A stretch of 64,000 bases of DNA, taken from contig CAIPHT010000007.1 of the NCBI GenBank assembly GCA_903864935.1, forward strand, positions 16,293 to 80,292, given 5' to 3'. Of this stretch, positions 6,019 through 64,000 are shown piece by piece. Numbering within the stretch: the first letter of the stretch is position 1; each line of letters starts with the position of its first letter. This stretch comes from Candidatus Vogelbacteria bacterium (GTDB lineage: Bacteria; Patescibacteriota; Minisyncoccia; Phycocordibacterales; XYD1-FULL-46-19). The notes under the pieces were generated by a model, which saw nothing but the letters and a program-made list of their open reading frames with translations, was not told where the DNA came from and did no database searches. The translations under genes and the position numbers were made by a program.

Positions 6019-8629
6019 AATGCGACACCAGTTAAAAACCATAAGAAGTTTAAAAATCCTCCTTGTTTTAGGATTAGTTCTTTTTGTTTTTAATTTTGTC
6101 AGCCCCAAGGTAGCCTTAGCCCTACCATTCCCGAATATTGATACGAGTCTTCTCCCGGGGATAAGTGATACGATACTAGACCCAACGGCACCAACTAATG
6201 GAGATAACGCCGACCCCATTGCTGAACGCCAAAAGAAAGATGAGGAACAGGCAAAACTTGAAGCGGATAGATTGAAGAAAGCTCAAGAAGAAGAGGACGT
6301 TAAGCTCTGCAAGAAAGATCAAGAATCAGTCAACACCGAAGTCGGAGCCGCCGCCTCAGGCGATGCCAGACAAGCTGACGCTTATGACCCTAAGAAACCG
6401 ATAACCGACGCCAATGGTGATGGCATCCCAGACCCGATTCCACCCGCCTGCACCAGTGCCAATGGTAATTCGCCTGCCTATACCGCCGCCTGGGAAGGCT
6501 TCACCCCGAGAGCTTTTAATGACATGGGGCACCAGACAATTGGGATGGGACATCAAATTACCGGCCATGAACCATTCGATGTGAGTGGCGATATCACCCA
6601 AGCCCAAGCGCAACAGTTATATGATGCCGATTATGCCACCGCCCGTTCGAATGCGGAACAATCGGCCACACGACACGGTGTTGATTGGCAAACCCTAAGT
6701 CCAGAACGTCAAACCGTTCTGACTGATATGAGTTTCAACATGGGGGCCTCGGGAGGTGGCGGAGTTGATGGCTTCGGTGATATGTGGGCCAACACCCGAC
6801 AAGCCCAACAAACAGGGGATCAGCGCTATTGGGATGCTGCCGGAGATGAGATTGTTGACAGTACTTATGGGCACCAATTAAAAACACGGTCTGAATACAA
6901 TGCCAATGTCATGCGCACCAGCGATAGCGCCTCAGTTGACCAGCAAGCCAACGCGACAGCATTGAGTCGCGGTCTATGTAGTGGCACAACCGCCTTCAAC
7001 TGGCAGAAACCTTTTAGCCTCTTCGCCATGCTCTTCGGTTCACAAATCGCCGAAGCCGTTGGCGGAACATTTGTCCCCGTGCAAGAGCAAGAGGGGGGCC
7101 TGATGGACAAGACTAAAGAGATCCAAACCAACACCGAACAAACCAGGAATCTCTCTATCCAAATTTGTACTCATCTTCGAGCCATCAAACGCATCCAACA
7201 AGAATTCGAGAAAAAAATGGTAGAGGATGCCAATGTTTCCCGTGTCAAAGCGACTGAGATTGCGAAGTATCAACAAGCACTTAATGGCAACAACGGGTTA
7301 CTAAAAACCGGATATGCCCTAATAGACGAGGATGGAAATGAAACAAAATTGGACCAAGGAATGCCTCTCTATATAGTAAATCAACAAGACTACATGGAAA
7401 AAGCGTCAAGAGAGGGAATCCAGGTGGCAATTGACGATATTACCCAAACACACAATATTTATAATAACCTTGTCTTGGCGAGCCTCCAATCTGAAGCTGG
7501 AGACAACGGCTTAGACTCCGGTCCAAGTATGGAGGATATTCAGAATGTCTTAGGCACCGATAACCCACAAGCGTCAACTGTTGTTGCAAAAAGCTCTTTT
7601 GATAATATTCCCATAATAACAAGCCTGCTCAAACCATTGCGTCAAACTTTTGCCTGGCTAACAGGAAGCGAGGCTTACGCTCTCGACAATAGCACAACCC
7701 AAAACAAGAGCACTGATCCTCGCCAATATTGGCCTAGCCTTATAAAGTTAGCCAAGGAGAATCCCTACACCAGTTATTTAAAGAACGTTGATTATATTAA
7801 TCAAAGTGAAAGTAAAGCCGTGCTCGCAGCAAGAGACACAGCCATACAAGGACAGGGCTTTTTACCAATTCGAACCTGTTTGCAGAAAACCTCTGATGGC
7901 AAAACCTGCTCTATCTGGGGAACATCTCAACCGGGAGCAATTGTTAAAGAAACAACAGCCGCGGCCGCTAATTCTCGTCTCACTCAGTATGAGAATGCCG
8001 ACACGGTTGGCGAGATAATCCAAGGCAACGAACCAAACATTACCGAACTCATAACCAACCTCCCAGCCGAGGGGGGCGGAGGAGCCGTGGGGCCGGGGAT
8101 GAGATCGGCAGAACAGATTTCCCAATCAATACAAACAATGTCGAGTAACCCCTCGACAAATCTCCCCGGGCAAATCATTAACATTGGTGGCGGCAATAAC
8201 TATAACGACAATGTTAACAGTGCCTTAAACGCCTCTGGTCTTGAAGGTCTATTGGGTAGCCTCTTCGGCAACAGCGATAAGCCAAACTTGTCCTCAAATA
8301 GCGAGCTCCAAGGGATAATAGATTCTCTCAAGCAAACCTTTTCCCTTATCTGGAATTTACTAAATCCGATCGTCATTGTTGGCACTAAGGCCAAAGACAA
8401 CGGCAACAAATTGCTCTACTGGTACTCACCAAACGCCAATGATTGCTCAACCACCAATGATTGGATGAGCGCCGGAGCCGAACAGGGGGTTATTAAAGCC
8501 AAGGGCGAGAGCTTAGGCGGTGTTGATAGCAGTCTCTTGGTTACCCCCACCACCACTACGAAATATAAGTTAAAATGTATGAACGGTAATGGCAACTCTG
8601 ACGAGAAAACTCTTGAAGTAAAAATATAA
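5999..8629 (+). CDS. large secreted protein with embedded GH24 (phage/T4-type) lysozyme domain
   Basis: Signal/TM at N-terminus. Segment WEGFTPRAFNDMGHQTIGMGHQITGH...LSPERQTVLTDMSFNMGASG...YWDAAGDEIVDSTYGHQLKTRSEYNANVM follows the GH24 pattern (catalytic Glu, TIGxGH, LxxxQxxALxxxxFNxG, GLxxRRxxExxLF-like). 876 aa. Confidence 0.6.
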   Translation: MLVLPNKMRHQLKTIRSLKILLVLGLVLFVFNFVSPKVALALPFPNIDTSLLPGISDTILDPTAPTNGDNADPIAERQKKDEEQAKLEADRLKKAQEEEDVKLCKKDQESVNTEVGAAASGDARQADAYDPKKPITDANGDGIPDPIPPACTSANGNSPAYTAAWEGFTPRAFNDMGHQTIGMGHQITGHEPFDVSGDITQAQAQQLYDADYATARSNAEQSATRHGVDWQTLSPERQTVLTDMSFNMGASGGGGVDGFGDMWANTRQAQQTGDQRYWDAAGDEIVDSTYGHQLKTRSEYNANVMRTSDSASVDQQANATALSRGLCSGTTAFNWQKPFSLFAMLFGSQIAEAVGGTFVPVQEQEGGLMDKTKEIQTNTEQTRNLSIQICTHLRAIKRIQQEFEKKMVEDANVSRVKATEIAKYQQALNGNNGLLKTGYALIDEDGNETKLDQGMPLYIVNQQDYMEKASREGIQVAIDDITQTHNIYNNLVLASLQSEAGDNGLDSGPSMEDIQNVLGTDNPQASTVVAKSSFDNIPIITSLLKPLRQTFAWLTGSEAYALDNSTTQNKSTDPRQYWPSLIKLAKENPYTSYLKNVDYINQSESKAVLAARDTAIQGQGFLPIRTCLQKTSDGKTCSIWGTSQPGAIVKETTAAAANSRLTQYENADTVGEIIQGNEPNITELITNLPAEGGGGAVGPGMRSAEQISQSIQTMSSNPSTNLPGQIINIGGGNNYNDNVNSALNASGLEGLLGSLFGNSDKPNLSSNSELQGIIDSLKQTFSLIWNLLNPIVIVGTKAKDNGNKLLYWYSPNANDCSTTNDWMSAGAEQGVIKAKGESLGGVDSSLLVTPTTTTKYKLKCMNGNGNSDEKTLEVKI

Positions 8630-18820: not shown

Positions 18821-20197
18821 ATGGAAGGAATTTTAGACAACAAGAAACTCTGGGAAAATGCCCTTAATGAGATCGAGTTGTCTATCTCTAAAGCTAACTT
18901 CGGCACCTGGTTTAAAAACACCCACATTATTAAATGTGATGACGGAATTATTCAATTAGCTGTTCCCAATGCTTTTGTTCGTGACTGGTTAGCTAATAAG
19001 TATCACAAGTTCATCTTGAAAGCTCTCCGCGATATGGAAGATGGGGTAAGATCTATCGAATACGTAATTAGCCGCCCCGACGACCAATCATCTAGTAATA
19101 AGGCTAAGATTGGTGTCAACAAAGACAACCTTCTTAGTAATGACCTTGGTTTAAAGGATCTCTATATTAACAAAGAGAGTAATCTTAATCCTAAATATGA
19201 TTTTAGCACCTTCATTGTTGGATCCTTTAATGATGTGGCCTATGCCGCTGGTCAAGCGGTAATTAAGAATCCAGGGACTGTTCATAATCCACTCTTTATT
19301 TATGGTGGAACAGGTTTGGGTAAGACCCACCTTCTCCAAGCAATTGGCAACCAGATTAAAAAGAATAATCCTAATAAATCAGTTTATTATATTAGTTCGG
19401 AGAACTTCATTGTGGAACTTATTAGTAATATTCAGAACAATAAAGGTAATAGCTTTAAGGAAAAGTTCCGCAAATATGACCTTCTTATTATTGATGATGT
19501 CCAATTTTTCTCTAACAAAGAGCATTCTCAAGAAGAACTCTTCCATTTATTCAATCATTATTACGATAACAATAAACAAATTATCTTTTCTTCAGATAAA
19601 CCCCCTAAATTTATTCCTAACCTTGAGGAGAGACTGCGTTCACGCTTCGAAGGGGGGATTATTATTGATATTTCCAAGCCTGATTATGAATCACGCTTAG
19701 CTATCCTAAGAAATAAGAATAAAACCTTAGAAATAAAGATTCCTGATGAGGTTCTCGAGTATCTTGCTTCTGTTATTCAAGACAGTATTAGAGAACTAGA
19801 GGGTTCTCTTAACTCTATTATTCTCCAATCTCAGGCTAAAAATAAAGAGATTACCTTACAAGAAGTGAAGGGGATTATTAAGAATAATATCAAACCTCAG
19901 AAAACTATTTCTATTAAAGACGTTATGCATGTTGTGGCTGATTACTATAATATTGAAGAGGCAATTCTCTATGAGAAAACTCGTCGTAAAGAGGTGGTTA
20001 AACCACGACAAATTATTATGTATATATTAAGAGAAGACTTTAATACTTCTTACCCTTATATTGGCCAAAAATTAGGTGGGAGAGACCACACAACAGTTAT
20101 TCACGCTTACGAAAAAATAAAAGAAGAAGTAAAAAATAATTCAGCCCTTGTCCAAGAGTTAGAACAAATTAGATCACTTCTTTACGCTAATAATTAA
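18821..20197 (+). CDS. dnaA: chromosomal replication initiator protein DnaA
   Basis: AAA+ Walker A GGTGLGKTHLLQAIGN, sensor motifs, C-terminal DNA-binding domain (TVIHAYEKI); 458 aa. Confidence 0.95.
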   Translation: MEGILDNKKLWENALNEIELSISKANFGTWFKNTHIIKCDDGIIQLAVPNAFVRDWLANKYHKFILKALRDMEDGVRSIEYVISRPDDQSSSNKAKIGVNKDNLLSNDLGLKDLYINKESNLNPKYDFSTFIVGSFNDVAYAAGQAVIKNPGTVHNPLFIYGGTGLGKTHLLQAIGNQIKKNNPNKSVYYISSENFIVELISNIQNNKGNSFKEKFRKYDLLIIDDVQFFSNKEHSQEELFHLFNHYYDNNKQIIFSSDKPPKFIPNLEERLRSRFEGGIIIDISKPDYESRLAILRNKNKTLEIKIPDEVLEYLASVIQDSIRELEGSLNSIILQSQAKNKEITLQEVKGIIKNNIKPQKTISIKDVMHVVADYYNIEEAILYEKTRRKEVVKPRQIIMYILREDFNTSYPYIGQKLGGRDHTTVIHAYEKIKEEVKNNSALVQELEQIRSLLYANN

Positions 20198-20432
20198 ATT
20201 TCTGTTAATAACCTGTGGAGAAGATTGTTAATAAAAAGATATTAAAAACAGGATAAGTTATAGAAAAATAAAAATATTATTTTAGAAGTAAAATTAATCT
20301 TAAGTAATCAACAGTTGAATAAAATTTATTATCTCAAATATGTTGCCAAATAAAGATATTCTGAGTTCTCCACATATCCCCAACTATAACAATAATAAGT
20401 TTCTTTTTAATTAAAAATAATTTATAAATACT
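20198..20432. other. candidate oriC (dnaA-dnaN intergenic, AT-rich with inverted DnaA-box-like pair)
   Basis: Very AT-rich 235-bp spacer. TGTGGAGAA at 20214..20222 and its reverse complement TTCTCCACA at 20366..20374 flank an AT-rich stretch. Confidence 0.45.
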
Positions 20433-21536
20433 ATGAAGCTAGAATGTCTAAAAGATAAATTTAAAGATGCTATTATCTTAGCCGAGAAGATAAGTGGGCG
20501 TAACTTAACCTTACCAATTCTAAGTACTATCCTGCTTGAGACTAAGAATAAGAATTTAATAATCAGAGCGACAAACTTAGAAGTGGGGATAGAAATAGAG
20601 ATTCCGGCCAAGATTGAAACTAGTGGTTTAGTGGCGGTTAATGCGAGTATTCTCTTGAATTATCTTAATAATCTTACTAAAGAAGAAAAAATAACCCTTG
20701 AGCTAGATAATAATAATCTTAAATTAAGTACTGAATCAACCCAAACGATTATTAAGAGTCTGGCGCCTGAAGATTTTCCTATTATTCCTAAAATTGCTCA
20801 GGAAGGTGGTTTTGAGATTAAGGCAGTTGATTTTGTCTCAGGCTTACAAGCTGTCTCTTTTGCAAGTGCAGTATCTGATATAAAACCAGAGATATCTAGC
20901 GTTTATCTTCATAATGAGAATCAAGATTTGATTTTTGTTGCCACCGACTCCTTTAGATTAGCCGAGAAAACAATAAATAATATCCCTAATTTAAGTAATC
21001 TTAATATTATTATTCCCTTTAAGAACGTGAACGAATTGATTAGAGTTCTAACTAGTTTGGGGACGAACCAAGTTGTTGTTAGTTATAATAAGAATCAATT
21101 AGCTATCCAGACAGACAATCTCTATCTTACTTTAAGGGTAATTGATGGTAATTATCCCGATTATAAACAAATCATCCCAACCAAATTTAATACTGAATTA
21201 AATATCAAAAAAGAAGATTTTGTTGGGTTACTTAAACTCTCAACAATTTTCTCTGATCGCTTTAATCAAATTGATATAACCTTTAAACCAGATTCTAATA
21301 CACTAGAAGTTTTATCTCATAACCAAGAAGTAGGGGAGAATAAATCGTCTTTAGTAATTAAAATTAAGGGCGAACCATTAATTATTAGCTTTAATGCTAA
21401 GTATTTACTAGATTGCCTTAGTTCCTTTAGTGATAATGTAATTAATCTACGTTTTACTGAGACAAGTCGACCTCTAATGATAGAGGGGACAACGGATAAC
21501 TCTTTCCATTATCTTGTGATGCCGATCAATAAGTAA
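20433..21536 (+). CDS. dnaN: DNA polymerase III subunit beta (sliding clamp)
   Basis: Three-domain clamp of 367 aa; N-terminus MKLECLKDKFKDAI...LTLPILSTILLE; conserved position after dnaA. Confidence 0.9.
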   Translation: MKLECLKDKFKDAIILAEKISGRNLTLPILSTILLETKNKNLIIRATNLEVGIEIEIPAKIETSGLVAVNASILLNYLNNLTKEEKITLELDNNNLKLSTESTQTIIKSLAPEDFPIIPKIAQEGGFEIKAVDFVSGLQAVSFASAVSDIKPEISSVYLHNENQDLIFVATDSFRLAEKTINNIPNLSNLNIIIPFKNVNELIRVLTSLGTNQVVVSYNKNQLAIQTDNLYLTLRVIDGNYPDYKQIIPTKFNTELNIKKEDFVGLLKLSTIFSDRFNQIDITFKPDSNTLEVLSHNQEVGENKSSLVIKIKGEPLIISFNAKYLLDCLSSFSDNVINLRFTETSRPLMIEGTTDNSFHYLVMPINK

Positions 21537-21537
21537 G

Positions 21538-21789
21538 ATGGATAACTTCAAAGATCTCCTTAAACTTTATAGTCAAAAATTAAATAGTACTCAATTAATT
21601 ATTGACGAAATTCTAGCTGTTATAAATAAAGAAACCGGTCTAAATCTTAATAAAACAAATTTAGTAACCAGAGATGGTATTGCTTATCTTAAAGTTAAAC
21701 CAAAACAAAAATTAGAGATTATCCTACATAAAGACAGGATAATCTCTAATTTTAAAGAAGAAAAAATTCTAATTACTGACCTAAAGTAA
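21538..21789 (+). CDS. small protein, possibly DUF721/DciA-like
   Basis: 83 aa directly after dnaN; segment TRDGIAYLKVKPKQKLEIILHKDRII loosely follows the DUF721 pattern. Weak. Confidence 0.3.
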   Translation: MDNFKDLLKLYSQKLNSTQLIIDEILAVINKETGLNLNKTNLVTRDGIAYLKVKPKQKLEIILHKDRIISNFKEEKILITDLK

Positions 21790-24226
21790 AAATGACTGTT
21801 TTGGTACTACTATTACCAGCTTGGTCATAAATAACAGCTTTTAGTTCATGTTTTCCTTTAGAAATAAGTGATTCTCCTGGGTTGAAAGCAAGAGAAAAAG
21901 GAGAATTTTTGGTTGATGTTAATTTATTATTATCAATAAAATAATCAACTTGAGATAAATTTAGATTACTAGGGAGAAGAAGAGAAATGTTAATATCACT
22001 TTGAAGTGAAAAATTACTTCCCTCTGTGGGGGAAAGAATATCAACCTGGTTGAGAAGTCTCACTTGATCTGGGTTAGGGGCACTCATAATCGTTTCTCCT
22101 CCTAAGCGTTGTGCTTTGGTCTTGAGCCATTGTTGAATAGGATATTCCCAAAGATTAAATTGCGGATCACCCGCTGGGTTACTTGGCCGTGGTCCCAAAG
22201 GATTATTTTTATCAAGCCAGTAGAGGATAGAATGAACATTATTATTAAGGACTTCTTGTCCGTTGATAATACTTGTCTCTCCACCTTGCCAATAACCACG
22301 AAGGACAGGCTTCAGACCGGCATAATTGACCACAGGGGGGATGAATTTCTCGTCTGGGGTGATAGCTAGCGCCTCCTTCATGACAGAGCTCCAGAGAGGT
22401 GTTAGGAGGTAACCAGCCACCTTCTTCTCCATTGGGGTGTTGTCACTGTTACCAGCCCAGGCCCCAACCACAACATTGGGGGTATAACCAATAACCCAAG
22501 CGTCCTTGTAGTCGTTTGTTGTCCCCGTTTTAACAGCCACCTGACGATTACCAAACCAGAGGTTAGAGTGGACACCATAAGCAGGAGCACGCGCGTTGTC
22601 ATCAGCCAAAATATCCGTTATTAATCTAGCGGTATTAACAGGAAGAACAACCTCATTCTTATCCTGATACTCTTCTATTTTGTCGCCATTTGGCCCAAGA
22701 ACACTAAGAACACCAACGGTGGCATGTTTAACTCCATCAGTGGCAAAGGTGCCATAAGCACCAGTCATATCGAGGAGAGAGACTTCACCACCACCCAAAA
22801 CGAGGGTTAAACCATATTGATTTTTATCACCAAGATTAGTAATTCCCATTTTTTTGGCTAAATCCAAAGCATCATTAATCCCAACGAGGTAAAGTAATTT
22901 AACCGCTGGGATATTGCGTGATTGGCCAAGAGCCTGTCTTAAGGTTAAGGGTCCGGGGAATTTTAAGTCATAATCATTAGGGGAGTAACATTTTGCTCCA
23001 GCGGTGAGCGGTTTGCTGGTAGGACTACAATTAGTATTAAATTCAGTTTTGAGGTCAAAAAGAACGGTCTGGTCAGTATAGCCTTTATTGAAGGCAGCGG
23101 CATAAACAAAGGGTTTGAAGGAAGAACCTGGTTGGCGATAAGCCGTGGCCACATTGAAATTACCACTAATTGCTTGGTTGAAGTAGTCACGCGAGCCGGT
23201 AAAAGCAAGAATTTGCCCTGTTTTCGGATCAATAATAACAATACTATTATTCTTAGCATTAAACTTGGTCTCGTTCTCGGTACCATATTTCTTAGCTAAT
23301 TCCTCAACTTTTTGTTGTAGATCCCAATTGATAGTGGAGATAACTTTGAAATCGTTATTCTCAATATTATCTAAGCCATAACGCTCAGCTAATTGATCCT
23401 TAAGCCAGAGAACAAAGTGAGGAGCCTTGATTCCCTGATTGATCTTCTCGTAGAAGGCGACTCGCTCTTGTTTAGCTTTATTATAATCAGTTTGAGAAAT
23501 GAGCTTGAGATCTAACATACGACTTAAGACCAAATTCTTTCTTTGTTCTAGTTTGGCTTTATTTGCCCCATAAGGAGAGTAATAATTAGGGGCTTGGGGC
23601 ATCGAGGCTAAATAAGCAGCCTCCGCGAGAGTAATCTGGGTAATATCTTTATGGAAATAGGCTTTAGCGGCCTCTTGAACCCCATAAATATTACCCCCAT
23701 AAGGAGATTGATTAAGATAAACATTCAAGATCTCGTCCTTCGTCATATTATTCTCCAGTTTAATTGAGAGAATAACTTCTTTAATCTTGCGAGTAATCGT
23801 CTTATCGCGTGTTAGAAGAGAATTTTTTACTACTTGCTGGGTGATTGTAGAGCCACCTTGTTGGGCCCCGCCAGAGACGAGGTCAACCAATAAGGCTCGG
23901 GCGATTGAGGTTGGTTGAATTCCTTTGTGTTGATAGAAACCAGCATCTTCGATTGCGATTGTGGCGTTCTTCATAATTTGGGGGATGGTCTGGAAAACGA
24001 CCGGAGTACGACGAACCCCTTTAACATCATAGAGCAAAATTTGACCAGTCCGGTCATAAATTTTCATTGACCGCTCAGCAATTTGTTTGGTGAAGAAGGT
24101 CTCGAAATCAGGCACCGGGAGAGTGATAGCCCAAATGGTAGTAAAACTACTCAAAAGGAGAAAAGCCGTGATAACAAAGAGGATTAAACTATAAATTTTA
24201 CTAAGATTATTTTTATGTTTAGACAT
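21773..24226 (-). CDS. mrcA: class A penicillin-binding protein (PBP1A; transglycosylase plus transpeptidase)
   Basis: N-terminal TM; GT51 motifs (EDAGFYQHKG, GGSTITQQ); transpeptidase SxxK (SSFKPF), SxN, KTGTT; C-terminal extra beta domain. Confidence 0.9.
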   Translation of the reverse strand: MSKHKNNLSKIYSLILFVITAFLLLSSFTTIWAITLPVPDFETFFTKQIAERSMKIYDRTGQILLYDVKGVRRTPVVFQTIPQIMKNATIAIEDAGFYQHKGIQPTSIARALLVDLVSGGAQQGGSTITQQVVKNSLLTRDKTITRKIKEVILSIKLENNMTKDEILNVYLNQSPYGGNIYGVQEAAKAYFHKDITQITLAEAAYLASMPQAPNYYSPYGANKAKLEQRKNLVLSRMLDLKLISQTDYNKAKQERVAFYEKINQGIKAPHFVLWLKDQLAERYGLDNIENNDFKVISTINWDLQQKVEELAKKYGTENETKFNAKNNSIVIIDPKTGQILAFTGSRDYFNQAISGNFNVATAYRQPGSSFKPFVYAAAFNKGYTDQTVLFDLKTEFNTNCSPTSKPLTAGAKCYSPNDYDLKFPGPLTLRQALGQSRNIPAVKLLYLVGINDALDLAKKMGITNLGDKNQYGLTLVLGGGEVSLLDMTGAYGTFATDGVKHATVGVLSVLGPNGDKIEEYQDKNEVVLPVNTARLITDILADDNARAPAYGVHSNLWFGNRQVAVKTGTTNDYKDAWVIGYTPNVVVGAWAGNSDNTPMEKKVAGYLLTPLWSSVMKEALAITPDEKFIPPVVNYAGLKPVLRGYWQGGETSIINGQEVLNNNVHSILYWLDKNNPLGPRPSNPAGDPQFNLWEYPIQQWLKTKAQRLGGETIMSAPNPDQVRLLNQVDILSPTEGSNFSLQSDINISLLLPSNLNLSQVDYFIDNNKLTSTKNSPFSLAFNPGESLISKGKHELKAVIYDQAGNSSTKTVIFTLGQ

Positions 24227-24345: not shown

Positions 24346-24492
24346 GTCAAAATCTTCCCCCCCCCCTTCTTCTTCGTCAGCAACCATATCTGGATCGTCC
24401 AAAAGGGGATCATCTAAGTCGATATCTTCAGCAATTGGGGGGGTGACAGTATCATCGTCACTACCCATAATTATTTGATCATCGTCAGGCAT
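24346..24492 (-). CDS. tiny highly acidic ORF containing an 11-nt poly-G (poly-C on plus strand) tract
   Basis: Minus-strand translation MPDDDQIIMGSDDDTVTPPIAEDIDLDDPLLDDPDMVADEEEGGGGRF. With a 10-nt homopolymer the tail would read ...EEEGGGEDFDEEF. Below the ORF-track size cut-off. Coding status uncertain. Confidence 0.25.
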
Positions 24493-32017: not shown

Positions 32018-32046
32018 TTGACAGATATGTTAGACTATGCTATACT
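32018..32046 (+). promoter_or_regulatory. near-consensus sigma70 promoter (TTGACA-N17-TATACT)
   Basis: TTGACA at 32018..32023, TATACT at 32041..32046, 17-nt spacer; followed by RBS AAAGGA 8 nt before the ATG at 32120. Confidence 0.55.
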
Positions 32047-32119
32047 ATAGGTAGAAATGCAGTATTGAGTTGGGAATAACTGGCGAGCTTAAAGGCCGCC
32101 TTAATGAAAGGATTTCCCC

Positions 32120-32779
32120 ATGAAGAACCTTGTTATAGTCGTTGTTTTTGTTGTCATGTTGGCGTCGGTTGCTTTTGCCCAGTCTGGGCAGAGCGTGACC
32201 TTTCACCAGCCCAACGGCGGGACGTCCACCTGGACCCCGCCGGCGGCGCAGATGGTCAAGACCCCGTGCTACGGCACGGTGCCGAGAGCCAACGGACCGG
32301 TCGTCCGTCAGCTTCAGTCGCAGTGGCCTTCTCAGGTCTCCGCCCCGATGCCGCCGGTTGTGGGTGGGACAACATCGGCTGATCCGAGCGGTGTAGCCTC
32401 CCTTCGGGGTGGCATAGTTGCCGCGCGCCCTGTTCCTTCGGGTAACCCCGAGGTCGACAGAGACAACAACCAGACGGACCTCCAATGGGGTCAGTTGGCG
32501 GCTGAGCGTGAGCGCAGCAACCAGCAGGCTGATCTGGAGAGAGTCCAGATCGAAAGGCAATACGACATCCAACGCCGTGAAGAGTCTCGCCAGACGGTTC
32601 AGACTTTGGCCAATGTCATCCAGAATTGGCAGGATGGACAGGCTCGGCGCGAAGACTCGAAGGCCTCGCGGCGAATTGAGGCAAACTGGCAGGCTCAGAA
32701 CGCCGCTCAGCAAGCGGCAGACCGCGCGAGCCAGTTGGCCCAAACGGCCATGTCAGCGGCCGCCGCGGCCAGGCACTAA
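32120..32779 (+). CDS. secreted Gln/Arg-rich protein encoded in a GC-rich island
   Basis: Signal peptide MKNLVIVVVFVVMLASVAFA-QS. GC-rich coding region that produces long shadow ORFs in other frames. Own promoter and terminator. Confidence 0.55.
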   Translation: MKNLVIVVVFVVMLASVAFAQSGQSVTFHQPNGGTSTWTPPAAQMVKTPCYGTVPRANGPVVRQLQSQWPSQVSAPMPPVVGGTTSADPSGVASLRGGIVAARPVPSGNPEVDRDNNQTDLQWGQLAAERERSNQQADLERVQIERQYDIQRREESRQTVQTLANVIQNWQDGQARREDSKASRRIEANWQAQNAAQQAADRASQLAQTAMSAAAAARH

Positions 32780-32795
32780 GTTTAGTAAAGGGTCC

Positions 32796-32840
32796 GAGCC
32801 CCTGGGAGAGAGTCACTCTCCCAGGGGCTTTTTCTTTTGT
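32796..32840 (+). terminator. rho-independent terminator
   Basis: GCCCCTGGGAGAG-AGTCACT-CTCTCCCAGGGGC followed by TTTTTCTTTTG. Confidence 0.65.
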
Positions 32841-33857: not shown

Positions 33858-33887
33858 TTGACGAGTAGGGCTATTTAGGGGTATATC
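33858..33887 (+). promoter_or_regulatory. sigma70-like promoter of GC-rich cassette (TTGACG-N18-TATATC)
   Basis: TTGACGAGTAGGGCTATTTAGGGGTATATC; near-identical in sequence to the promoter at 38851..38880. Confidence 0.5.
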
Positions 33888-33972
33888 TGAAGCAGATAAT
33901 CATTGTCATTTTACTCGGTGTCTCTGGGTGAAATGTTGAAATATCGGCGAACAGAAATAAGGAAAACTGACC

Positions 33973-34614
33973 ATGGATTACATGCTCAGCAAAGCGCTCC
34001 GCGAATTCAATTCCGGACCGCTTCATCAACTTCTAGTGAATCTTGGTGGGGAAGAGGGCGCAATGTGGGAAGCAGAGCTCAAAAAGTTCAATCGCAAGGA
34101 AACCTGCTGGCCCAAGACGAACCCCTACCTGCGCAAGCTCGCGGACGGCACGCTTCCGGCGACCGACGGCCAGCGAACGATGGTCAGGGCGAAGGACATG
34201 TTTCCCGGCTACTTCGGGAAAGATTACGCTAACTGGGGAACGGATGTCCCTGGCAAAGCGACGCCGGAAATGCCATTCCAAGTGTATGAGCTGGTCATGG
34301 ACGGTAAATTCGCGCAGATCTTCGGCGGATTCGCCCGTCCACTCGGCGAGTTGTGCTGGGAACAAGACAAGATCCTCGCGTTTGTGGAGGGTCACCCCGA
34401 ACGGCTCCACCCGCAGGGCTACGGGACCTTCTTCTTGTTCAAGGTTAAGTTCAAGGAGAACACCGAGAACAAGCGAGAGGAGTTCTTCGTTGCCAACGTC
34501 TACCGGGACGGTGGCCAGCTCAAGGCGCACGTGTTCCGGTTCTCGTTCGACAGCGTCTGGCCTGCCGGGTATCGCTATCGCTTCGTGGTCCCGCAACTGG
34601 CCTCAGCCGTTTAG
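33973..34614 (+). CDS. GC-rich cassette protein, paralog family member 1
   Basis: RBS AAGGAAAA. Shares VNxLGGEE N-terminal motif and C-terminal FFVANVYRDGGQLKAHVFRFSFDSVWPAGYRY motif with 39012..39605, 56425..56793, 59273..59920 and 53722..53901. Confidence 0.6.
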   Translation: MDYMLSKALREFNSGPLHQLLVNLGGEEGAMWEAELKKFNRKETCWPKTNPYLRKLADGTLPATDGQRTMVRAKDMFPGYFGKDYANWGTDVPGKATPEMPFQVYELVMDGKFAQIFGGFARPLGELCWEQDKILAFVEGHPERLHPQGYGTFFLFKVKFKENTENKREEFFVANVYRDGGQLKAHVFRFSFDSVWPAGYRYRFVVPQLASAV

Positions 34615-34708
34615 TCTCTGTTTCCCCTTTGTCGCTTTGATCCTCAATCCCTTGGACCCTTTCGGGGGCCCAGGGGATTTTTGCTATAAATGAGTTATAC
34701 TTAAGGCA

Positions 34709-38850: not shown

Positions 38851-38880
38851 TTGACAAGTAGGGCAATTTGGGTGTATAAT
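38851..38880 (+). promoter_or_regulatory. consensus sigma70 promoter of GC-rich cassette (TTGACA-N18-TATAAT)
   Basis: TTGACAAGTAGGGCAATTTGGGTGTATAAT; homologous to the promoters at 33858 and 59081. Confidence 0.55.
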
Positions 38881-39011
38881 GTAAGTAGAAGTTTGAAATA
38901 GAAATAGCGTTTTTTGTGAGGCAAACCGTGTTTGTCTTGCTGTCTTGTTTGGCCTCTTGCCTATCAGGTGAGAGGAACCCCCGACTATCAGTCGGGAGAA
39001 AGGCTACGGCC

Positions 39012-39605
39012 ATGTCAAAGTATGGACACAGAACAGGAGACTGGTGTGAGGCGATTGTGAACAAGCTTGGAGGAGAAGAAGCGGCTGACGCTTTCCTTCG
39101 GGACGAGTTGGTCATCTCCAAACGGCCCGCCGATGCCATCCTCGAGTTCGTCGGCACGGCCAACATCGCCGCCACGACAACGAAGTTCGTCGCCAAGGAA
39201 AAGTTCAAGCTGAAGAAGGATGGGGGCATCTGCTCCTATATCGGCGACAACTTCAAGGACTGGTTCGGCGGCAAAGAGGAGGATCCGCTTGCCGAAACCA
39301 CGCTCCGCTATGCCAAACTCCGCAAGTCGTCCGTCGACACCCCGATTGTCGCCGAGCTTGGCGGTGAAGCAAAGGCCGAGACCACGTTGACGGAAGTCTT
39401 TGGTCTTATGTCCAAACAGGCCAAGGCCGAGACTGGCGTTCTCCTCACCAATGGCTGGGCGAACATCTTCTATGTTCGCGATCAGAATGGTGTGTTGCGC
39501 GCGGTCTTCGTCCACTGGGACGACGGCGGCTGGAGCGTGCACGCGGGCGAGCTCGGCTACCCGGATACGTGGCTCGATGGCTACCAGGTGTTCTCTCGCA
39601 ATTAG
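39012..39605 (+). CDS. GC-rich cassette protein, paralog family member 2
   Basis: RBS GGGAGAAAGG 9 nt upstream; MSKYGHRTGDWCEAIVNKLGGEEAAD...IFYVRDQNGVLRAVFVHWDDGGWSVHAGELGY. Start set at the internal Met of track ORF 38916..39605. Confidence 0.6.
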   Translation: MSKYGHRTGDWCEAIVNKLGGEEAADAFLRDELVISKRPADAILEFVGTANIAATTTKFVAKEKFKLKKDGGICSYIGDNFKDWFGGKEEDPLAETTLRYAKLRKSSVDTPIVAELGGEAKAETTLTEVFGLMSKQAKAETGVLLTNGWANIFYVRDQNGVLRAVFVHWDDGGWSVHAGELGYPDTWLDGYQVFSRN

Positions 39606-39675
39606 CGCTTAGGGTCTTGGAAACTTCGGGTTTCTGACCCTTAGATCCTTTTGACCCTTTGGCCCTGTTCCCTTA

Positions 39676-39715
39676 ACCCCCGGACGCATTTCGTCCGGGG
39701 GTTTCGCTTTTTGGG
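39676..39715 (+). terminator. rho-independent terminator
   Basis: ACCCCCGGACG-CATTT-CGTCCGGGGGT followed by TTCGCTTTTTGGG. Confidence 0.6.
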
Positions 39716-53721: not shown

Positions 53722-53901
53722 GTGGAGACATCGTTTTACCTTTATGGGGAGTCTGGTCGTTATCTGGGGACAGTTGTTCTGTCTGTGGAAACGACAAGCG
53801 CAACCGATTTCTGGAAGGCCCTTTTGGAGAAGGATCGGGCCTTGTATGAAGAGACCGCAACCTTCGCCCCCGTTTCTGGCTTCACAGCACACGCTGTCTA
53901 G
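53722..53901 (+). CDS. small GC-rich protein, minimal member of the cassette paralog family (GTG start)
   Basis: RBS AAGGAGG 7 nt before GTG; VETSFYLYGESGRYLGTVVLSVETTSATDFW matches the family C-terminal motif. In frame with track ORF 53689..53901. Confidence 0.4.
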   Translation: METSFYLYGESGRYLGTVVLSVETTSATDFWKALLEKDRALYEETATFAPVSGFTAHAV

Positions 53902-54561: not shown

Positions 54562-55074
54562 ATGCTGTTAATCTCTTGCAAAAATTGTGGCAAGATTTTT
54601 AAAAAGAAGCCTTCTCAAGTTGAACGTTCAAAAGAACATTTTTGCTCTGCTTTTTGTCAACATGAAGCAAAAAAGTCAGGTGGAATGAAAGAATGCTTTA
54701 TCTGCGGTGAAAAAATTTATCGACAAAGCAAGTTTTTGAAGCAATCTCAAAGTGGTAAATTTTTTTGTAGCAAAAAGTGTAGTCTAAAATGGCAAAATAC
54801 AGAATTTATTGGAGAAAAACATCCAAATTGGATTAGTGGTGAATATTCCTATCGGGCAATTCTAAAAAAAACAGGGGTCGCTCAGAGGTGCTGTCTGTGT
54901 GACAAAGATGACAAGAGGATTCTCGCTGTTCACCATTTGGATAAAAATCGTCAGAATAATAAAAAAGCTAATCTCGTCTGGCTCTGCCATAATTGTCATC
55001 ATTTGGTGCATCATTATGATGTGGATAAAGAATTTTTGGCTAAAATAAAACAAAATGGTAATAAGACTTTGTAA
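54562..55074 (+). CDS. HNH endonuclease with two N-terminal CxxC zinc-ribbons (paralog 1)
   Basis: CKNCG...CSAFC and CFICG...CSKKC ribbons; HNH core AVHHLDKNRQNNKKANLVWLCHNCHHLVHH. Confidence 0.7.
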   Translation: MLLISCKNCGKIFKKKPSQVERSKEHFCSAFCQHEAKKSGGMKECFICGEKIYRQSKFLKQSQSGKFFCSKKCSLKWQNTEFIGEKHPNWISGEYSYRAILKKTGVAQRCCLCDKDDKRILAVHHLDKNRQNNKKANLVWLCHNCHHLVHHYDVDKEFLAKIKQNGNKTL

Positions 55075-55546
55075 AATTTGCGGGGAATCTTTTAAAACAA
55101 AACCCTCTTTTGTTGAGAAGGGGCAGGGGATATATTGCTCGAATACTTGTCATTATCGAGACAAGAAGGGTGAAAAAATTAAATGTTTTGTCTGTGGCCA
55201 GGAAACATACCGGCCTATTTCTCGACTTGGTAATTCTAAAAGTGGAAAATATTTCTGTGGCAAGTCTTGTCAAACTAAATGGCGGAATAAGGAATTTAGC
55301 GGAGAAAAGAGTTTGATGTGGAAAAATGGTCAATCAACATATAGACGGGTAATAATAAAGAGCTCTGTTAAAAAGGAGTGTCAGTTGTGCCAAGAAAATG
55401 ATCAGAGAGTCTTGGCTGTCCACCATATCGATAAAAATCGAAAAAATTACAAAGTTGAAAATCTGGCTTGGCTGTGCCATAATTGCCATTACTTGGTGCA
55501 TCACCATGATTCGGAGATGCAAAAGTTTATGGAGGCATTGGTGTAG
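55055..55546 (+). CDS. HNH endonuclease with two N-terminal CxxC zinc-ribbons (paralog 2)
   Basis: Same architecture (CKICG...CSNTC; CFVCG...CGKSC; AVHHIDKNRKNYKVENLAWLCHNCHYLVHH); overlaps paralog 1 by 20 nt. Confidence 0.7.
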   Translation: MVIRLCKICGESFKTKPSFVEKGQGIYCSNTCHYRDKKGEKIKCFVCGQETYRPISRLGNSKSGKYFCGKSCQTKWRNKEFSGEKSLMWKNGQSTYRRVIIKSSVKKECQLCQENDQRVLAVHHIDKNRKNYKVENLAWLCHNCHYLVHHHDSEMQKFMEALV

Positions 55547-56424: not shown

Positions 56425-56793
56425 ATGGCATCGCTTAAGGAATTGGTAGACCTTTTCAACAATGGCGCTCTTGGCAAAATGCTGGCCGAGAGGTTCCATG
56501 GAGAGCGGGGTCACGTGTACCCCCGCCAAGACTCGGAGTTTGTGATTGGCTTCGCTTCGGAGGAAGCGACGCCATCAGGTGAGGCGATTGGGATAGCTGT
56601 GACCGAGTTTTACCAAGGTCTTGGTTATGTGGTCAAAGTGCTCAGGTATAATGATCCAGACGTCTTCGTCGCCAATGTTTATTGTCCGAAGGAGAATTTT
56701 GGAGTTATCCTGGTGAATATTACGACGAAGTACCCCATCTCCCTTGGTGGACCACACGACCATCTTCGGGTGATGACCAATGCCACAATCTGA
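56425..56793 (+). CDS. GC-rich cassette protein, paralog family member (short form)
   Basis: RBS AAAGGAGG 7 nt upstream; MASLKELVDLFNNGALGKMLAERF...DVFVANVYCPKENFGVILVNITTKYPISLGG. Start set at the internal Met of track ORF 56362..56793. Confidence 0.5.
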   Translation: MASLKELVDLFNNGALGKMLAERFHGERGHVYPRQDSEFVIGFASEEATPSGEAIGIAVTEFYQGLGYVVKVLRYNDPDVFVANVYCPKENFGVILVNITTKYPISLGGPHDHLRVMTNATI

Positions 56794-59272: not shown

Positions 59273-59920
59273 ATGAGGCAGGTGAAATTCAAGGCGACAT
59301 GGGATCACAAACCGTTCGCCGAAATTGACGGATGGCCAGCTTGGCCAACATCGGAAGGGGTTCAGCCCATGGTCGGTGAGACATGGGAGGTGGACGTTGC
59401 TGGTGTTAAGAGCGGGATGGACAAGTGGATAAGACTTGTCCGTAAGGTAGAGGCAGAACCCGTTGCTGGGCCTGCTACTATCGTTGTCGTGAGGGACAGC
59501 AATGATATGTTGTACTCACCGACGAATTGGAAAGTCCTGATCGATGGCCAGCCATTACGGAAAGATGCGCCAGTTGTTGATGCTGTGAGGAGCATTAAGT
59601 TCGCTCTTCCGAGCAACGATCGGGCGAAGGAGTATGCGAACTCCCTGTTTCAGCTGGAGGAAGGAAGGATTTACGTTTTGATCTTTGAGACGTACAACTC
59701 GAGGAATACCCCTCGCATTGTAAGTGAAGGGGGACTGATTCGGGTGTTCGCCTATGGCGATGGTCACGGAATGTCGTGGGCGGCGTTGTTCAAGGTAAGC
59801 GAACCATCCTGGACCGTCGACTGGAATACGCCGAGCGGCAAGTACCGGATCGTTGGGTCCGGAGAGAAGTACGTTCATAAGGACGAGGAACGAAGGGTTG
59901 AAGAAGCCCCTATCGCATAA
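59273..59920 (+). CDS. GC-rich cassette protein, paralog family member
   Basis: RBS AAAGGAGG; ...GGLIRVFAYGDGHGMSWAALFKVSEPSWTVDWNTPSGKYRI C-terminal family motif; ~165-nt structured 5' leader; followed by a terminator hairpin (CCCACCAT...ATGGTGGG plus T-run). Confidence 0.55.
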   Translation: MRQVKFKATWDHKPFAEIDGWPAWPTSEGVQPMVGETWEVDVAGVKSGMDKWIRLVRKVEAEPVAGPATIVVVRDSNDMLYSPTNWKVLIDGQPLRKDAPVVDAVRSIKFALPSNDRAKEYANSLFQLEEGRIYVLIFETYNSRNTPRIVSEGGLIRVFAYGDGHGMSWAALFKVSEPSWTVDWNTPSGKYRIVGSGEKYVHKDEERRVEEAPIA

Positions 59921-61389: not shown

Positions 61390-61845
61390 ATGAGAGAAAA
61401 AGCCGAAATCCTTGTTCAAAAGTATATTATAACGGCCGTTTACCTCTTTGTTTGGGCCGGGACTCTCGGCAGTCTTTATTTTAGCGAGGTCAAACATCTG
61501 CCACCTTGTTCCCTTTGCCTTATCCAGCGCGGATTGATGTATCCACTTATCCTTATTATGGGGATCGGGTTGTGGAAGAAGGATCGCTGGTTGCCTTATT
61601 ATGTCTTACCCTTCTCCATCTTAGGCCTAATTGTCTCGGGTTATCACAATTTGCTGGTTTGGCATTTAGCCCCCGCTGATCTCATTGTTTGCTCTATCCA
61701 GCTACCTTGCACCATTCAAGAATTTGCCCTTTTGGGCTTCGTCACCATCCCCTTAATGTCCTTCTTTGCTTTTGCCTTTATAACGGCGGGGATAATTACT
61801 TATGCAAAATTAACCCTTAAAATTAAGGGTCCTGGGCGGGGTTGA
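61390..61845 (+). CDS. dsbB: disulfide bond formation protein B (DsbB/BdbC-like)
   Basis: Four TM helices, PCSLCLIQR (CxxC in first loop) and CSIQLPC second Cys pair. Confidence 0.75.
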   Translation: MREKAEILVQKYIITAVYLFVWAGTLGSLYFSEVKHLPPCSLCLIQRGLMYPLILIMGIGLWKKDRWLPYYVLPFSILGLIVSGYHNLLVWHLAPADLIVCSIQLPCTIQEFALLGFVTIPLMSFFAFAFITAGIITYAKLTLKIKGPGRG

Positions 61846-61881
61846 CTTTTTAGGCGAGAAGGGGTATCATTAAGAGTAATA

Positions 61882-61903
61882 AGCCCGCGGGGGCTTTTTT
61901 TAA
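61882..61903 (+). terminator. rho-independent terminator
   Basis: AAGCCC-GCGG-GGGCTT followed by TTTTTT. Confidence 0.6.
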
Positions 61904-61947
61904 AAACTGACAATTTTAGCAATTTTATTAGCTTAATAAAAAATACT

Positions 61948-62133
61948 ATGTCTAGACTCCTCAATTACTTCAAAGATACTCGTAGCGAGATGAAGCACGT
62001 GAGCTGGCCCACCCAGAGCCAGACCATTAACTTCACAATCATGGTTCTCGCCATTTCGATTTTTACCGGCTTACTTCTTGGCTTGTTTGATGTTATCTTC
62101 CAACTTGGTCTAAAAAGTTTTATTCTAAAATAA
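61948..62133 (+). CDS. secE: preprotein translocase subunit SecE
   Basis: 61 aa, SRLLNYFKDTRSEMKHVSWPT then one TM; precedes nusG. Confidence 0.85.
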   Translation: MSRLLNYFKDTRSEMKHVSWPTQSQTINFTIMVLAISIFTGLLLGLFDVIFQLGLKSFILK

Positions 62134-62141
62134 AAATAATT

Positions 62142-62687
62142 ATGGCAAAACAAGAACTAGAACAAGGGCGTAATTGGTACGCCATCCACACCTACTCAGG
62201 CTACGAGAATGCGGTCGCCCGTAATCTTAAACAGCGTATTGAGTCTCTTGGTATGGAGAACAAAATTTTTAACGTGATTGTCCCCACTGAGAAAAAGGTT
62301 AAGGTGAAGGGAGGGAAGCGTGTGACCGAAGATGAGAAGATTTACCCAGGTTATGTCTTAGTAGATATGACGGTGACCGATGACTCTTGGTATGTTGTCC
62401 GTAATACCCCGCGAGTGACTGGCTTTATCGGCTCGGGTGTCGTCCCTGTTCCTCTTGAGAAGAAGGAGGTGGATGAACTCTTCAGTCGTATGAGTGACGA
62501 TAGTGTGAAGCATAATATTGACTTGGTGAAGGGTGAGTTGGTAACCATTGTCGATGGCCCATTTAAGGAGTTTGAAGGTAAGGTTAGTGAGACAGATGAA
62601 GTTCGTGGTAAGGTTAAGGTCTTGGTCTCCATGTTTGGTCGCGAGACCCCGGTCGAACTCGATTTCTTGCAAGTTAAGAAGATTTAA
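62142..62687 (+). CDS. nusG: transcription termination/antitermination factor NusG
   Basis: NGN domain WYAIHTYSGYENAV, KOW motif GELVTIVDGPFKEFEGKV. Confidence 0.95.
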   Translation: MAKQELEQGRNWYAIHTYSGYENAVARNLKQRIESLGMENKIFNVIVPTEKKVKVKGGKRVTEDEKIYPGYVLVDMTVTDDSWYVVRNTPRVTGFIGSGVVPVPLEKKEVDELFSRMSDDSVKHNIDLVKGELVTIVDGPFKEFEGKVSETDEVRGKVKVLVSMFGRETPVELDFLQVKKI

Positions 62688-62710
62688 GGTAAATTAGCTA
62701 AGCAACTATT

Positions 62711-63136
62711 ATGGCAACACAAAAAGTAACAAAAAAGATTAAATTACAGATTCCGGCTGGTAAAGCTACCCCAGCTCCTCCAGTTGGTACCGCTTTGGGT
62801 CCTGCTGGCGTGAACATTGGTGATTTCGTTCAGAAGTTCAATGCGGCCACCGCTGAGATGGCTGGCAACATTATTCCGGTTGAATTATCTGTCTACGCCG
62901 ACCGCAGTTTCGACTTTATTCTTAAGACCCCACCAGCCGCCAATCTCTTGATGAAGGCTGCCGGTATTGAGAAAGGTTCTGGTAAGAACTTGGTCAGTAA
63001 GTCTGGCAAAGTCACTAAGGCTCAGGTTCGTGAGATTGCTGAACGCAAGATGCCTGACCTCAACACTACCGATATTGAACAAGCCGTTCGCATGATCGAA
63101 GGCACTGCCCGCTCGATGGGAATGGAAATCAAGTAA
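62711..63136 (+). CDS. rplK: 50S ribosomal protein L11
   Basis: [37 protein letters not shown]; 141 aa. Confidence 0.95.
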
Positions 63137-63155
63137 TTAAGTTTAAATTTAAAAA

Positions 63156-63195
63156 CAAAGACCTTGAACAGCTTATCTGTCAAGGTTTTTGTTTT
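63156..63195 (+). terminator. rho-independent terminator after rplK
   Basis: ACCTTGA-ACAGCTTATCTG-TCAAGGT followed by TTTTGTTTTG. Confidence 0.7.
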
Positions 63196-63219
63196 GCTTT
63201 AATTTGTTAAAATAGAGAT

Positions 63220-63792
63220 ATGAGATTAGCTGTTGTTGGTCCGCAGAATACGGGCAAGTCCACCTTTATTCAGGATTTTGTAAAAACTTTTCCTGATTAT
63301 ATTACGCCGGCCGAGACTTATCGGGACGTTATTAAACGTAAAAAATTAGACATAAATCAGAAGGGGAGCGAAGAGACACAGAAGGCCATCCGTGATTTTC
63401 TCTACAACCAGATTTGTCATAACCAGGAAAGGAATGTTCTCTTCGACCGTTGTGTGATTGATAATTATGTTTACTCGCTGGCCCTTTATGAGAAAAAACA
63501 GGCGAGTCTCGAATTTCTAAATGAGACTTTTGACATGGCCGTTAAGCATCTAGAGTTCCTTGATGGCATCATCTTCATTCCATCGGCCGTCTCGGTAAAA
63601 TTGGTCAACGACGATCTACGAGATATTGAGACAAAATATATTGATAAGATTAACCGTTTCTTTATTAAGACACTATTCCTTCTTCATAAAGACCGACCGA
63701 TTGAAGTCTTCGTTATCTCGGGGGATAGGAAGGAGAGATTAAAACTAGCTCGAGACATCTTCCACTTTATCAATTATCGTCTAAGACTGTAA
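63220..63792 (+). CDS. P-loop NTPase (AAA_28/NadR-kinase-like small ATPase)
   Basis: Walker A VVGPQNTGKSTF at N-terminus; Walker B-like VLFDRCVIDN; 190 aa. Confidence 0.5.
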   Translation: MRLAVVGPQNTGKSTFIQDFVKTFPDYITPAETYRDVIKRKKLDINQKGSEETQKAIRDFLYNQICHNQERNVLFDRCVIDNYVYSLALYEKKQASLEFLNETFDMAVKHLEFLDGIIFIPSAVSVKLVNDDLRDIETKYIDKINRFFIKTLFLLHKDRPIEVFVISGDRKERLKLARDIFHFINYRLRL

Positions 63793-63797
63793 AAATA

Positions 63798-64000
63798 ATG
63801 AAAGACAAACAAATCGAAAATTTAATTAAGGCCGAAGAGAAGCGCCAAAAGAGTGTGGTTAATCTTACCGCTTCAGAGAACTATGTGTCCAAAGATGTTC
63901 TCATGGCCTTAGGCTCAATCCTGACGAATAAATACGCTGAGGGCTATTCAGTTCAGCGCTATTATTATGGTACTGATATTAGCGACCAGATCGAAAATCT
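63798..64000 (+). CDS. glyA: serine hydroxymethyltransferase, N-terminal part (runs off window end)
   Basis: NLIKAEEKRQKSVVNLTASENYVSKDVLMALGSILTNKYAEGYSVQRYYYGTD matches the SHMT N-terminus. Confidence 0.9.
   Translation, partial: MKDKQIENLIKAEEKRQKSVVNLTASENYVSKDVLMALGSILTNKYAEGYSVQRYYYGTDISDQIEN

Follow-up and report, generated by a model that had tools for sequence, protein, structure and literature searches.

Two GC-rich genes of a Candidatus Vogelbacteria bacterium as probable detached targets of a Patescibacteria-specific clade of diversity-generating retroelements

Two probable retroelement target genes

The DNA analysed here (the window) is a 64-kb stretch of contig CAIPHT010000007.1 from a Candidatus Vogelbacteria bacterium, which has a GC content of about 0.44 and resembles a chromosome segment of the Patescibacteria (candidate phyla radiation, CPR). 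It carries two GC-rich gene cassettes, A and B, and it is very probable that gene A (33973..34614, + strand, 213 aa) and gene B (39012..39605, + strand, 197 aa) are target (variable-protein) genes of a Patescibacteria-specific clade of diversity-generating retroelements (DGRs), standing here detached from the rest of such a system. They are assigned as DGR targets because, in related genomes, their homologs directly precede a template repeat (TR), which is followed by a bAvd gene and a reverse transcriptase (RT) gene, and because the last ~120 nt of these homologs differ from the TR almost exclusively at TR adenines. The genes had originally been put down as a family of unknown function, a description now replaced by their assignment as DGR variable proteins, belonging to target families A and B, respectively. 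The DGR system itself is known; the points of interest are the stand-alone arrangement of the two genes, an offset in their GC content at third codon positions (GC3), a conserved promoter and a downstream tract of CTT[A/T/G]G motifs. With this assignment, two "hypothetical" GC-rich genes become recognisable parts of a targeted-hypermutation system.

In the following, L numbers denote related loci and P numbers denote family homologs. RT relatives were collected by scanning GTDB genomes with the RT of L008, which yielded 201 relatives, with 80 loci being kept; counts of RT-clade architecture are based on 81 RT loci. In L008, the gene for the family A protein P0006 is followed downstream by an RVT_1 gene, and its C-terminal 120 nt are repeated 436 nt downstream, with all mismatches in the best 40-nt windows falling at adenines of the downstream copy. 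Genes of family A or B were found directly upstream of the RT at several RT loci. In loci L008, L013, L047 and L079 (family A) and L038, L011, L054, L025, L020 and L090 (family B), the TR follows the variable region (VR) at a distance of 434–488 nt, and the VR/TR pairs show 11–21 mismatches at TR adenines versus 2–3 elsewhere. A VR/TR pair in the same layout is present at 54 of the 81 loci of this RT clade, most of the others having the RT at a contig edge. An RT of this clade is also carried by closed Patescibacteria genomes, OZ246412.1 being one. The RT of these relatives is of the RVT_1 type, and a bAvd-like gene (PF22296) is located between TR and RT on the opposite strand (in L008, for example, in the region 7091–7497). 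L054 has a single TR and two targets. DGR clade 2 has been reported from Patescibacteria only, with targets lacking recognisable domains (PMC8144416), and the initiation of mutagenic homing (IMH) site, the inverted repeat downstream of it and CPR VR classes of unknown fold have been described previously (PMC5758913).

Variable regions of genes A and B

The VR of gene A (VR-A; 34483..34599, + strand) has an IMH-like end, CGCTTCGTGGTCCCGCAACTG (34579–34599), and aligns to the VR/TR pairs of the family A loci listed above, and the VR of gene B (VR-B; 39489..39602, + strand), with the IMH-like end CAGGTGTTCTCTCGCAAT (39585–39602), aligns to those of the family B loci. Compared with the TR of L008, VR-A has mismatches at 16 of 30 TR adenines versus 6 of 86 other positions (p = 2.6e-7), and VR-B differs from the TR of L011 at 16 of 29 adenines versus 13 of 87 other positions (p = 4e-5). 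Over the comparisons of the window VRs with TRs from other genomes, the p values for adenine preference ranged from 2.6e-7 to 1.6e-2. The ends of the two VRs, ...GTGGTCCCGCAAC in A and ...GTGTTCTCTCGCAAT in B, are of the VR type (...CGCAA...), unlike the TR type (...CGAAAC...) represented by the TR ends of the relatives (...CCCGAAAC and ...CTCGAAAC), and they are identical to those of active relatives.

In both family alignments, invariant positions of the last ~40 residues alternate with positions occupied by Y/H/D/G/N/S/C/F/R/L, and one family B member, P0103, has Asn at almost every variable position. Such an alternating C-terminus, taken with the Asn-rich P0103, marks a DGR variable region. 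Translation of the TRs gives RFFVANVNRNDDGQLKANVNRLSNDNVWNAKNRNRFVVPKL in family A and NAGVLRAVNVNWNDDGWNVNANSVENPNRWNDGNQVFSRN in family B, and the high-entropy columns of the alignments are exactly the Asn codons (AAY) of the TR, plus one Lys codon in family A; in family B, all ten columns reaching 2.6 bits or more correspond to TR Asn codons. The window VRs hold residues other than Asn at the variable positions, with codons that are mostly NNC.

Hypervariable C-termini could also be produced by ordinary diversifying selection on surface proteins, with no retroelement involved, and the lack of a TR in the window speaks for such an origin. However, the variable columns correspond one-to-one to the AAY codons in the TRs of the relatives, the substitutions at the DNA level are adenine-specific, and RT and bAvd genes are physically linked to the families, so that we hold selection of this kind to be a most improbable explanation. 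We infer instead that the VR sequences in the window were written by the DGR mechanism. In a full system, the TR downstream of the VR would be transcribed, and the bAvd/RT pair would copy it into cDNA while misincorporating opposite template adenines, mostly in AAY codons. The cDNA would then replace the VR, the direction being fixed by the VR-type end (IMH) versus the TR-type end, plus downstream elements. In this way the VR, i.e. the last ~40 codons, would put about 10–12 hypervariable residues on a lectin-like fold.

Two further features of the related loci were observed. A conserved leader is found in L008, L011, L013, L020 and L054 in the ~230 nt from the target terminator to the TR, and includes the blocks GGTAGTAGGTGAATATGCGG, CGGTTACGGCTT, GGGTACGCCTT and CATGATTTGGCTGGTGGTG upstream of the TR. 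An Rfam search of two full DGR loci returned tRNAs only and gave no match to the leader, which probably forms a structured 5' portion of the DGR RNA. At 53 of 75 loci, the 120 nt preceding the RT include a run of 8–16 G; in L054 this run falls in the 5' end of avd and is read as a Pro run. A homopolymer of this length might make DGR activity phase-variable, or else the site may be sensitive to assembly.

Relationship and predicted fold of the two proteins

Since pairwise BLASTP of A against B was not significant (E 0.1), a comparison of profiles was needed, and the family A and B alignments matched each other with an hhalign probability of 98.6% (E 1.3e-15) over 190 columns. On the evidence of these profiles, gene B is a true, very distant paralog of gene A, the two coding regions now being ~18% identical. 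The relatedness of the proteins proposed in the original prediction is thus upheld by hhalign despite the BLASTP result. As to the motifs on which that proposal drew, VNxLGGEE sits in an N-terminal helical module common to A and B, and the C-terminal motifs are real, although they had been aligned a few residues off register. The start of gene B is the ATG at 39012 and not the GTG at 38916, as judged from the family alignment and the ribosome-binding site (RBS). Gene A is preceded by a 5' untranslated region (33888..33972, + strand) with the Shine-Dalgarno region AAGGAAAACTGACC before the ATG, which is conserved in relatives; its RBS region and first codons are conserved in L007, L008 and L092.

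Family A comprises about 27 proteins and family B more than 578. Taxonomic statements cover only the members with a source name, and these all come from Patescibacteria (e.g. Paceibacterota, Nomura-, Taylor- and Vogelbacteria). Neither protein matched an entry in Pfam or NCBIfam, and the family A and B profiles found no match among PDB sequences. No signal peptide or transmembrane segment was evident by eye in either protein. AlphaFold2 (AF2) models of A and B had predicted local distance difference test (pLDDT) values of 88–93 and were C-type-lectin-like, with TvpA, a solved DGR target, among their matches. According to these models, A and B may carry a divergent C-type-lectin fold, which would form the body of each protein behind an N-terminal three-helix module. 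Given this putative fold and the usual role of DGR targets, we infer that the proteins would bind ligands or cell surfaces.

The N-terminal helical module is swapped between families A and B. Many family B members begin like gene A (MD.MLSKALREF..GPLNQL.VNLGG..G), and proteins P0025–P0027 share this module (MD.MLSKALREFNSGPL.QLLVNLGG) at 64–81% identity to residues 1–50 of gene A, being otherwise unrelated to it. The module behaves as a portable unit placed on differing C-terminal domains, perhaps for docking or export.

Owing to the high GC content, shadow open reading frames (ORFs) of 187–216 aa overlap gene A in other frames, in agreement with the earlier observation of long shadow ORFs. 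Several long ORFs overlapping in different frames would also be expected if the GC-rich segments were structured non-coding RNAs or elements and the ORFs artefacts of composition. We give this possibility practically no weight, since there is no Rfam match, protein-family matches reach E values down to 1e-110 with conservation running along the reading frame, the AF2 models have the pLDDT values given above, and an RBS precedes each ORF. Nor does a known rRNA or other non-coding RNA, considered originally as a possible source of the GC skew, account for it, as Rfam gives only 7 tRNAs in the window, none of them inside the cassettes.

GC richness as a trait of the target genes

Windowed GC and GC3 values bore out the claim that the segment 33858–34690 is GC-rich, with the excess lying at synonymous sites. 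GC is 0.57–0.60 at 34000–34700 and 0.57–0.61 at 39000–39700, against about 0.44 elsewhere, and genes A and B, with GC3 of 0.75, rank as the top two of the 68 ORFs (mean 0.45, sd 0.09). The non-variable body of the two genes has a GC3 of 0.72–0.73. Adenine avoidance was considered as the cause and rejected: the non-VR body has A at 0.25 and T at 0.19, and avoidance of adenine fails to explain a composition in which A and T are both reduced.

The same richness is found in the relatives, for which counts of locus GC and of the 3' tract described below are based on 55 related targets. In 53 of the 55, GC is higher in the target than in the remainder of the locus; mean GC is 0.52 (target), 0.41 (remainder of the locus) and 0.35 (adjacent RT). 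The GC3 offset, computed over 50 related loci as the non-VR body versus the other long ORFs of the locus, has a median of +0.16 (Wilcoxon p = 1e-7); the GC3 of the adjacent RT is slightly below that of the other long ORFs of the same locus. Target GC3 correlates with host GC3 (r = 0.54), and in L077, the single very GC-rich host, it lies below that of the host. As the excess tracks host GC3, it is an offset and not a fixed foreign composition, and GC richness is a clade-wide trait of the target genes, not a donor signature.

The original prediction had suggested a horizontally acquired, expanding gene family, with an actinobacterial host or its phage named as a possible GC-rich donor. The contrast between a GC3 of 0.75 and one of 0.45 speaks for such an origin, as do the varying positions of the genes across genomes, always between housekeeping genes. 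On the other hand, i) the source-named homologs are exclusively from Patescibacteria, ii) no homolog was found in 50,697 phage records (INPHARED), and the 2.9 million contigs of IMG/VR gave only 2 weak matches (34% identity), iii) the GC3 excess is clade-wide, scales with the host and is reversed in L077, iv) the RT next to the target in the cassette is AT-rich, and v) only two genes in the window are related to each other, not the five or more paralogs that had been proposed. A foreign donor is therefore very unlikely, and a compositional island in a CPR genome is not necessarily foreign DNA.

Promoters and 3' flanks of the cassettes

The promoter of cassette A (TTGACG, 18-nt spacer, TATATC; 33858..33887, + strand) is identical at 24 of 30 positions to that of cassette B (TTGACA, 18-nt spacer, TATAAT; 38851..38880, + strand), and the resemblance noted originally between these two sites is thereby confirmed. 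The cassette B promoter matches the consensus at 12 of 12 positions and is the top match in the region 31.5–41 kb. The strong expression proposed originally is a prediction from such promoter consensus. The spacers are identical at 15 of 18 nt (binomial P about 4e-6), and the upstream homology between A and B begins precisely at the -35 box. A degenerate 28-mer of the promoter matches the window at these two sites only; the number expected from shuffled sequences is 0. The spacer AGTAGGGCAATTTGGGTG was found solely upstream of A, B and the family A genes of L007 and L008, the L007 promoter being 29/30 identical to that of cassette B; the remaining related targets have consensus-like but different promoters. 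Conservation of the spacer although the coding regions have diverged to ~18% identity points to selection (e.g. for a regulator site) or to promoter exchange within the lineage.

Downstream of VR-A, a tract of CTT[A/T/G]G motifs (34627..34655, + strand; motifs at 34627, 34635 and 34651) is followed by an overlapping, terminator-like hairpin with a 10+4 bp stem and a T-run (34646..34679, + strand), the sequence of which is conserved in L008. The corresponding tract of cassette B (39608..39661, + strand) has motifs at 39608, 39616, 39640 and 39657, its first part forming an imperfect hairpin (39608–39644), and is followed by an intrinsic terminator with a 12-bp stem and a T-run (39675..39703, + strand). 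Fold z scores were -1.2 for the 95-nt flank of cassette A and -5.8 for the 128-nt flank of cassette B, which includes two hairpins. In both cassettes the hairpins downstream of the IMH resemble intrinsic terminators; an inverted repeat or hairpin at this place occurs in only about a third of DGRs (PMC5758913). The 3' flanks are thus alike, as had been claimed, both having CTT[A/T/G]G units, a hairpin and a T-run. With the shared promoter 30-mer, the homologous proteins and the 3' tract, the proposal that the repeated unit comprises promoter, gene and 3' elements also stands.

Three CTT[A/T/G]G units by themselves are not significant within the window, and the case for the tract therefore rests on the ensemble of related targets. 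In the 100 nt after the VR, the motif occurs 3.05 times in the 55 related targets versus 0.32 times in 17,552 background windows, a ~10-fold enrichment that is limited to 0–100 nt after the VR. The spacing of the motifs peaks at 7–8 and 15–16 nt, with a unit of roughly TGRYMCTTDG. The tract also follows the VRs of targets having no similarity to A or B and of targets of ~630 aa, and no enrichment was seen after the TRs of related loci. C[A/T/C]AAG, the complement of the 3' tract motif and a possible means of pairing with it, was not enriched in the spacer of the DGR RNA. No description of the tract was found in two DGR surveys (PMC8144416, PMC5758913); Paul et al. (2017), dealing with CPR DGRs, may cover the tract or detached targets.

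The CTT[A/T/G]G tract may mark the target site. On a broader proposal, Patescibacteria DGR targets would be portable cassettes scattered among housekeeping genes and rewritten in trans, and the tract would be a recognition element replacing the cruciform of Bordetella and Legionella. Such a self-contained cassette would have a promoter conserved within the lineage, a coding body of raised GC3, an IMH-bearing VR, CTT[A/T/G]G repeats of ~8 nt and a hairpin, with the repeat tract following VRs and not TRs and varying with the RT clade, not with the target family. We consider this proposal speculative and, taken as a whole, rather unlikely. The GC3 excess and the CTT[A/T/G]G tract nevertheless provide testable leads on how minimal cells mark or express their variable proteins.

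Detachment and present-day activity

Cognate TRs were sought in the window on both strands, by identity and by adenine-restricted mismatch. A TR for A would be expected to fit GGCCARCTCAAGGCGNNCGTGNNCCGGTTCTCGNNCNNCNNCGTCTGGNNTGCCNNGNNTCGCNNTCGCTTCGTGGTCCCG, the VR pattern with all variable codons relaxed, and one for B an analogous pattern ending in CAGGTGTTCTCTCGAAAC. No cognate TR for VR-A or VR-B was found in the 64 kb, and tblastn of the window with the L008 RT and the L020 bAvd gave chance matches only. These two negative results weigh against the assignment of A and B to a DGR; within that assignment, they make A and B detached targets, separated by at least 25–34 kb from any TR or RT that the genome may have. 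Homologs standing alone in this way are common. At L003, L007 and the P0012 locus, no RT was present within ~6 kb, and the first two of these loci lacked a TR as well. In L092 (JGI 3300013137 contig Ga0172375_10000681), a family B gene follows an RVT_1 gene at a distance of 5.3 kb, and the TR-like sequence beside this RT is of a different type, with no match to the family B gene. The RT of L092 is followed by a ribbon-helix-helix (RHH)/YafQ-like toxin-antitoxin pair. L094, which has the closest RT in ENA, ends at the Avd gene, and its sequence does not include the TR.

Further rewriting of A and B would need a distinct cognate TR for each and an RT elsewhere in the genome. That the two genes are still rewritten in trans seems to us only a little short of an even chance. 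The competing possibility, which is nested in the DGR-target assignment and differs only in present-day activity, is that they are frozen relics, i.e. former DGR targets whose TR and RT were lost or never present and which are now fixed-specificity binders on their own promoters; this we regard as only slightly less probable, the remaining probability falling to error in the overall assignment. That two different TRs would be required, and that isolated copies are frequent, speaks for many targets being frozen. In addition to the absence of TR, RT and Avd from the window, no VR variants are on record, the members of 90% clusters of A and B differing only in the called start and assemblies ERZ18660404 and ERR4194645 having identical copies, and CPR DGRs are mostly single, adjacent-target systems (PMC5758913). 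Intact ORFs, IMH-like ends the same as those of active relatives, and retained downstream elements (3' tract and hairpins), by contrast, argue that A and B are still competent, and the promoter spacer also appears constrained. The negative results for TR and RT, moreover, cover the 64-kb window, and metagenome surveys are blind to remote targets, a limitation that has been acknowledged (PMC8144416). If detached targets are still rewritten, surveys requiring a VR beside the RT undercount the diversified proteins of CPR bacteria.

The right end of the window (61842–63998), comprising a NusG-L11-AAA_28 region, has 80% DNA identity to positions 477–2650 of L008, and in L008 a complete DGR (family A target, TR and RT) is located about 3.6–6 kb further downstream of this region. 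If the synteny extended further, a DGR could be present immediately past the right end of the window.

Comparison with known systems

The closest known counterparts of A and B are the Patescibacteria/CPR DGR targets ("DGR clade 2" of Roux et al. 2021, PMC8144416; "CPR set" UVR1-6 of Wu et al. 2018, PMC5758913), with which they share the host phylum and the RT clade of their relatives. The proteins of both are small, with no recognisable Pfam domain and with the VR at the extreme C-terminus, and both show adenine-specific mismatches and IMH/IMH*-like ends of VR and TR. Unlike the CPR set, A and B stand alone, with no TR or RT over the distance given above. Treponema denticola TvpA and Mtd of Bordetella phage BPP-1, the prototypes of DGR variable proteins with a C-type-lectin fold, share no sequence similarity with A and B, whose domain is much smaller and has neither a lipoprotein signal nor a phage tail context. 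Downstream of the VR, A and B have the CTT[A/T/G]G tract together with a hairpin terminator, whereas only a GC-rich inverted repeat has been described for BPP-1 and Legionella. In the remote "lineage 4" DGR targets, located >100 kb from the RT (PMC5758913), the target is likewise split off by housekeeping genes. In that survey, such remote targets were found only outside the CPR set (PMC5758913), and trans-targeting of A and B is a candidate case, with no cognate TR in the window. Integron gene cassettes and other portable units of promoter and gene are likewise short single-gene units at varying positions between housekeeping genes. Membership of A and B in this class was rejected, as they have no attC-like site, integrase or array and have their own promoter, and the likeness is one of analogy only.

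Other features of the window

A third GC-rich unit is located at 32018–32830, with a consensus-like promoter (32018–32046) and a terminator with a 15-bp stem (32796–32830). Its ORF (32120–32779; 219 aa, GC 0.62, GC3 0.70) has no Pfam or NCBIfam match and, by eye, shows a hydrophobic signal-like N-terminal segment and a Q/R/A-rich C-terminal half. It was rejected as a further paralog or DGR target, having an hhalign probability of <5% and neither the promoter nor the 3' tract. The same holds for two of the paralogs proposed originally, the ORFs 56425–56793 (GC3 0.57) and 59273–59920 (GC3 0.60), which have raised GC3 and no family match, and the paralog proposed at 53722 results from a wrongly extended 5' end of a cobalamin adenosyltransferase gene beside a tRNA.

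A run of ten C (24357–24366), with no Avd or RT similarity nearby, apparently lies within a coding region. The region 19500–22000 is AT-rich (GC 0.26–0.34 versus about 0.44 elsewhere). At 54562–55546, tandem paralogous ORFs encode Cys/His-rich proteins of 170 and 163 aa ending in HH..LCH.CH..VHH. These two ORFs contain a 130-nt repeat with 72% identity (54896–55025 and 55386–55515) and appear HNH/zinc-finger-like by eye.
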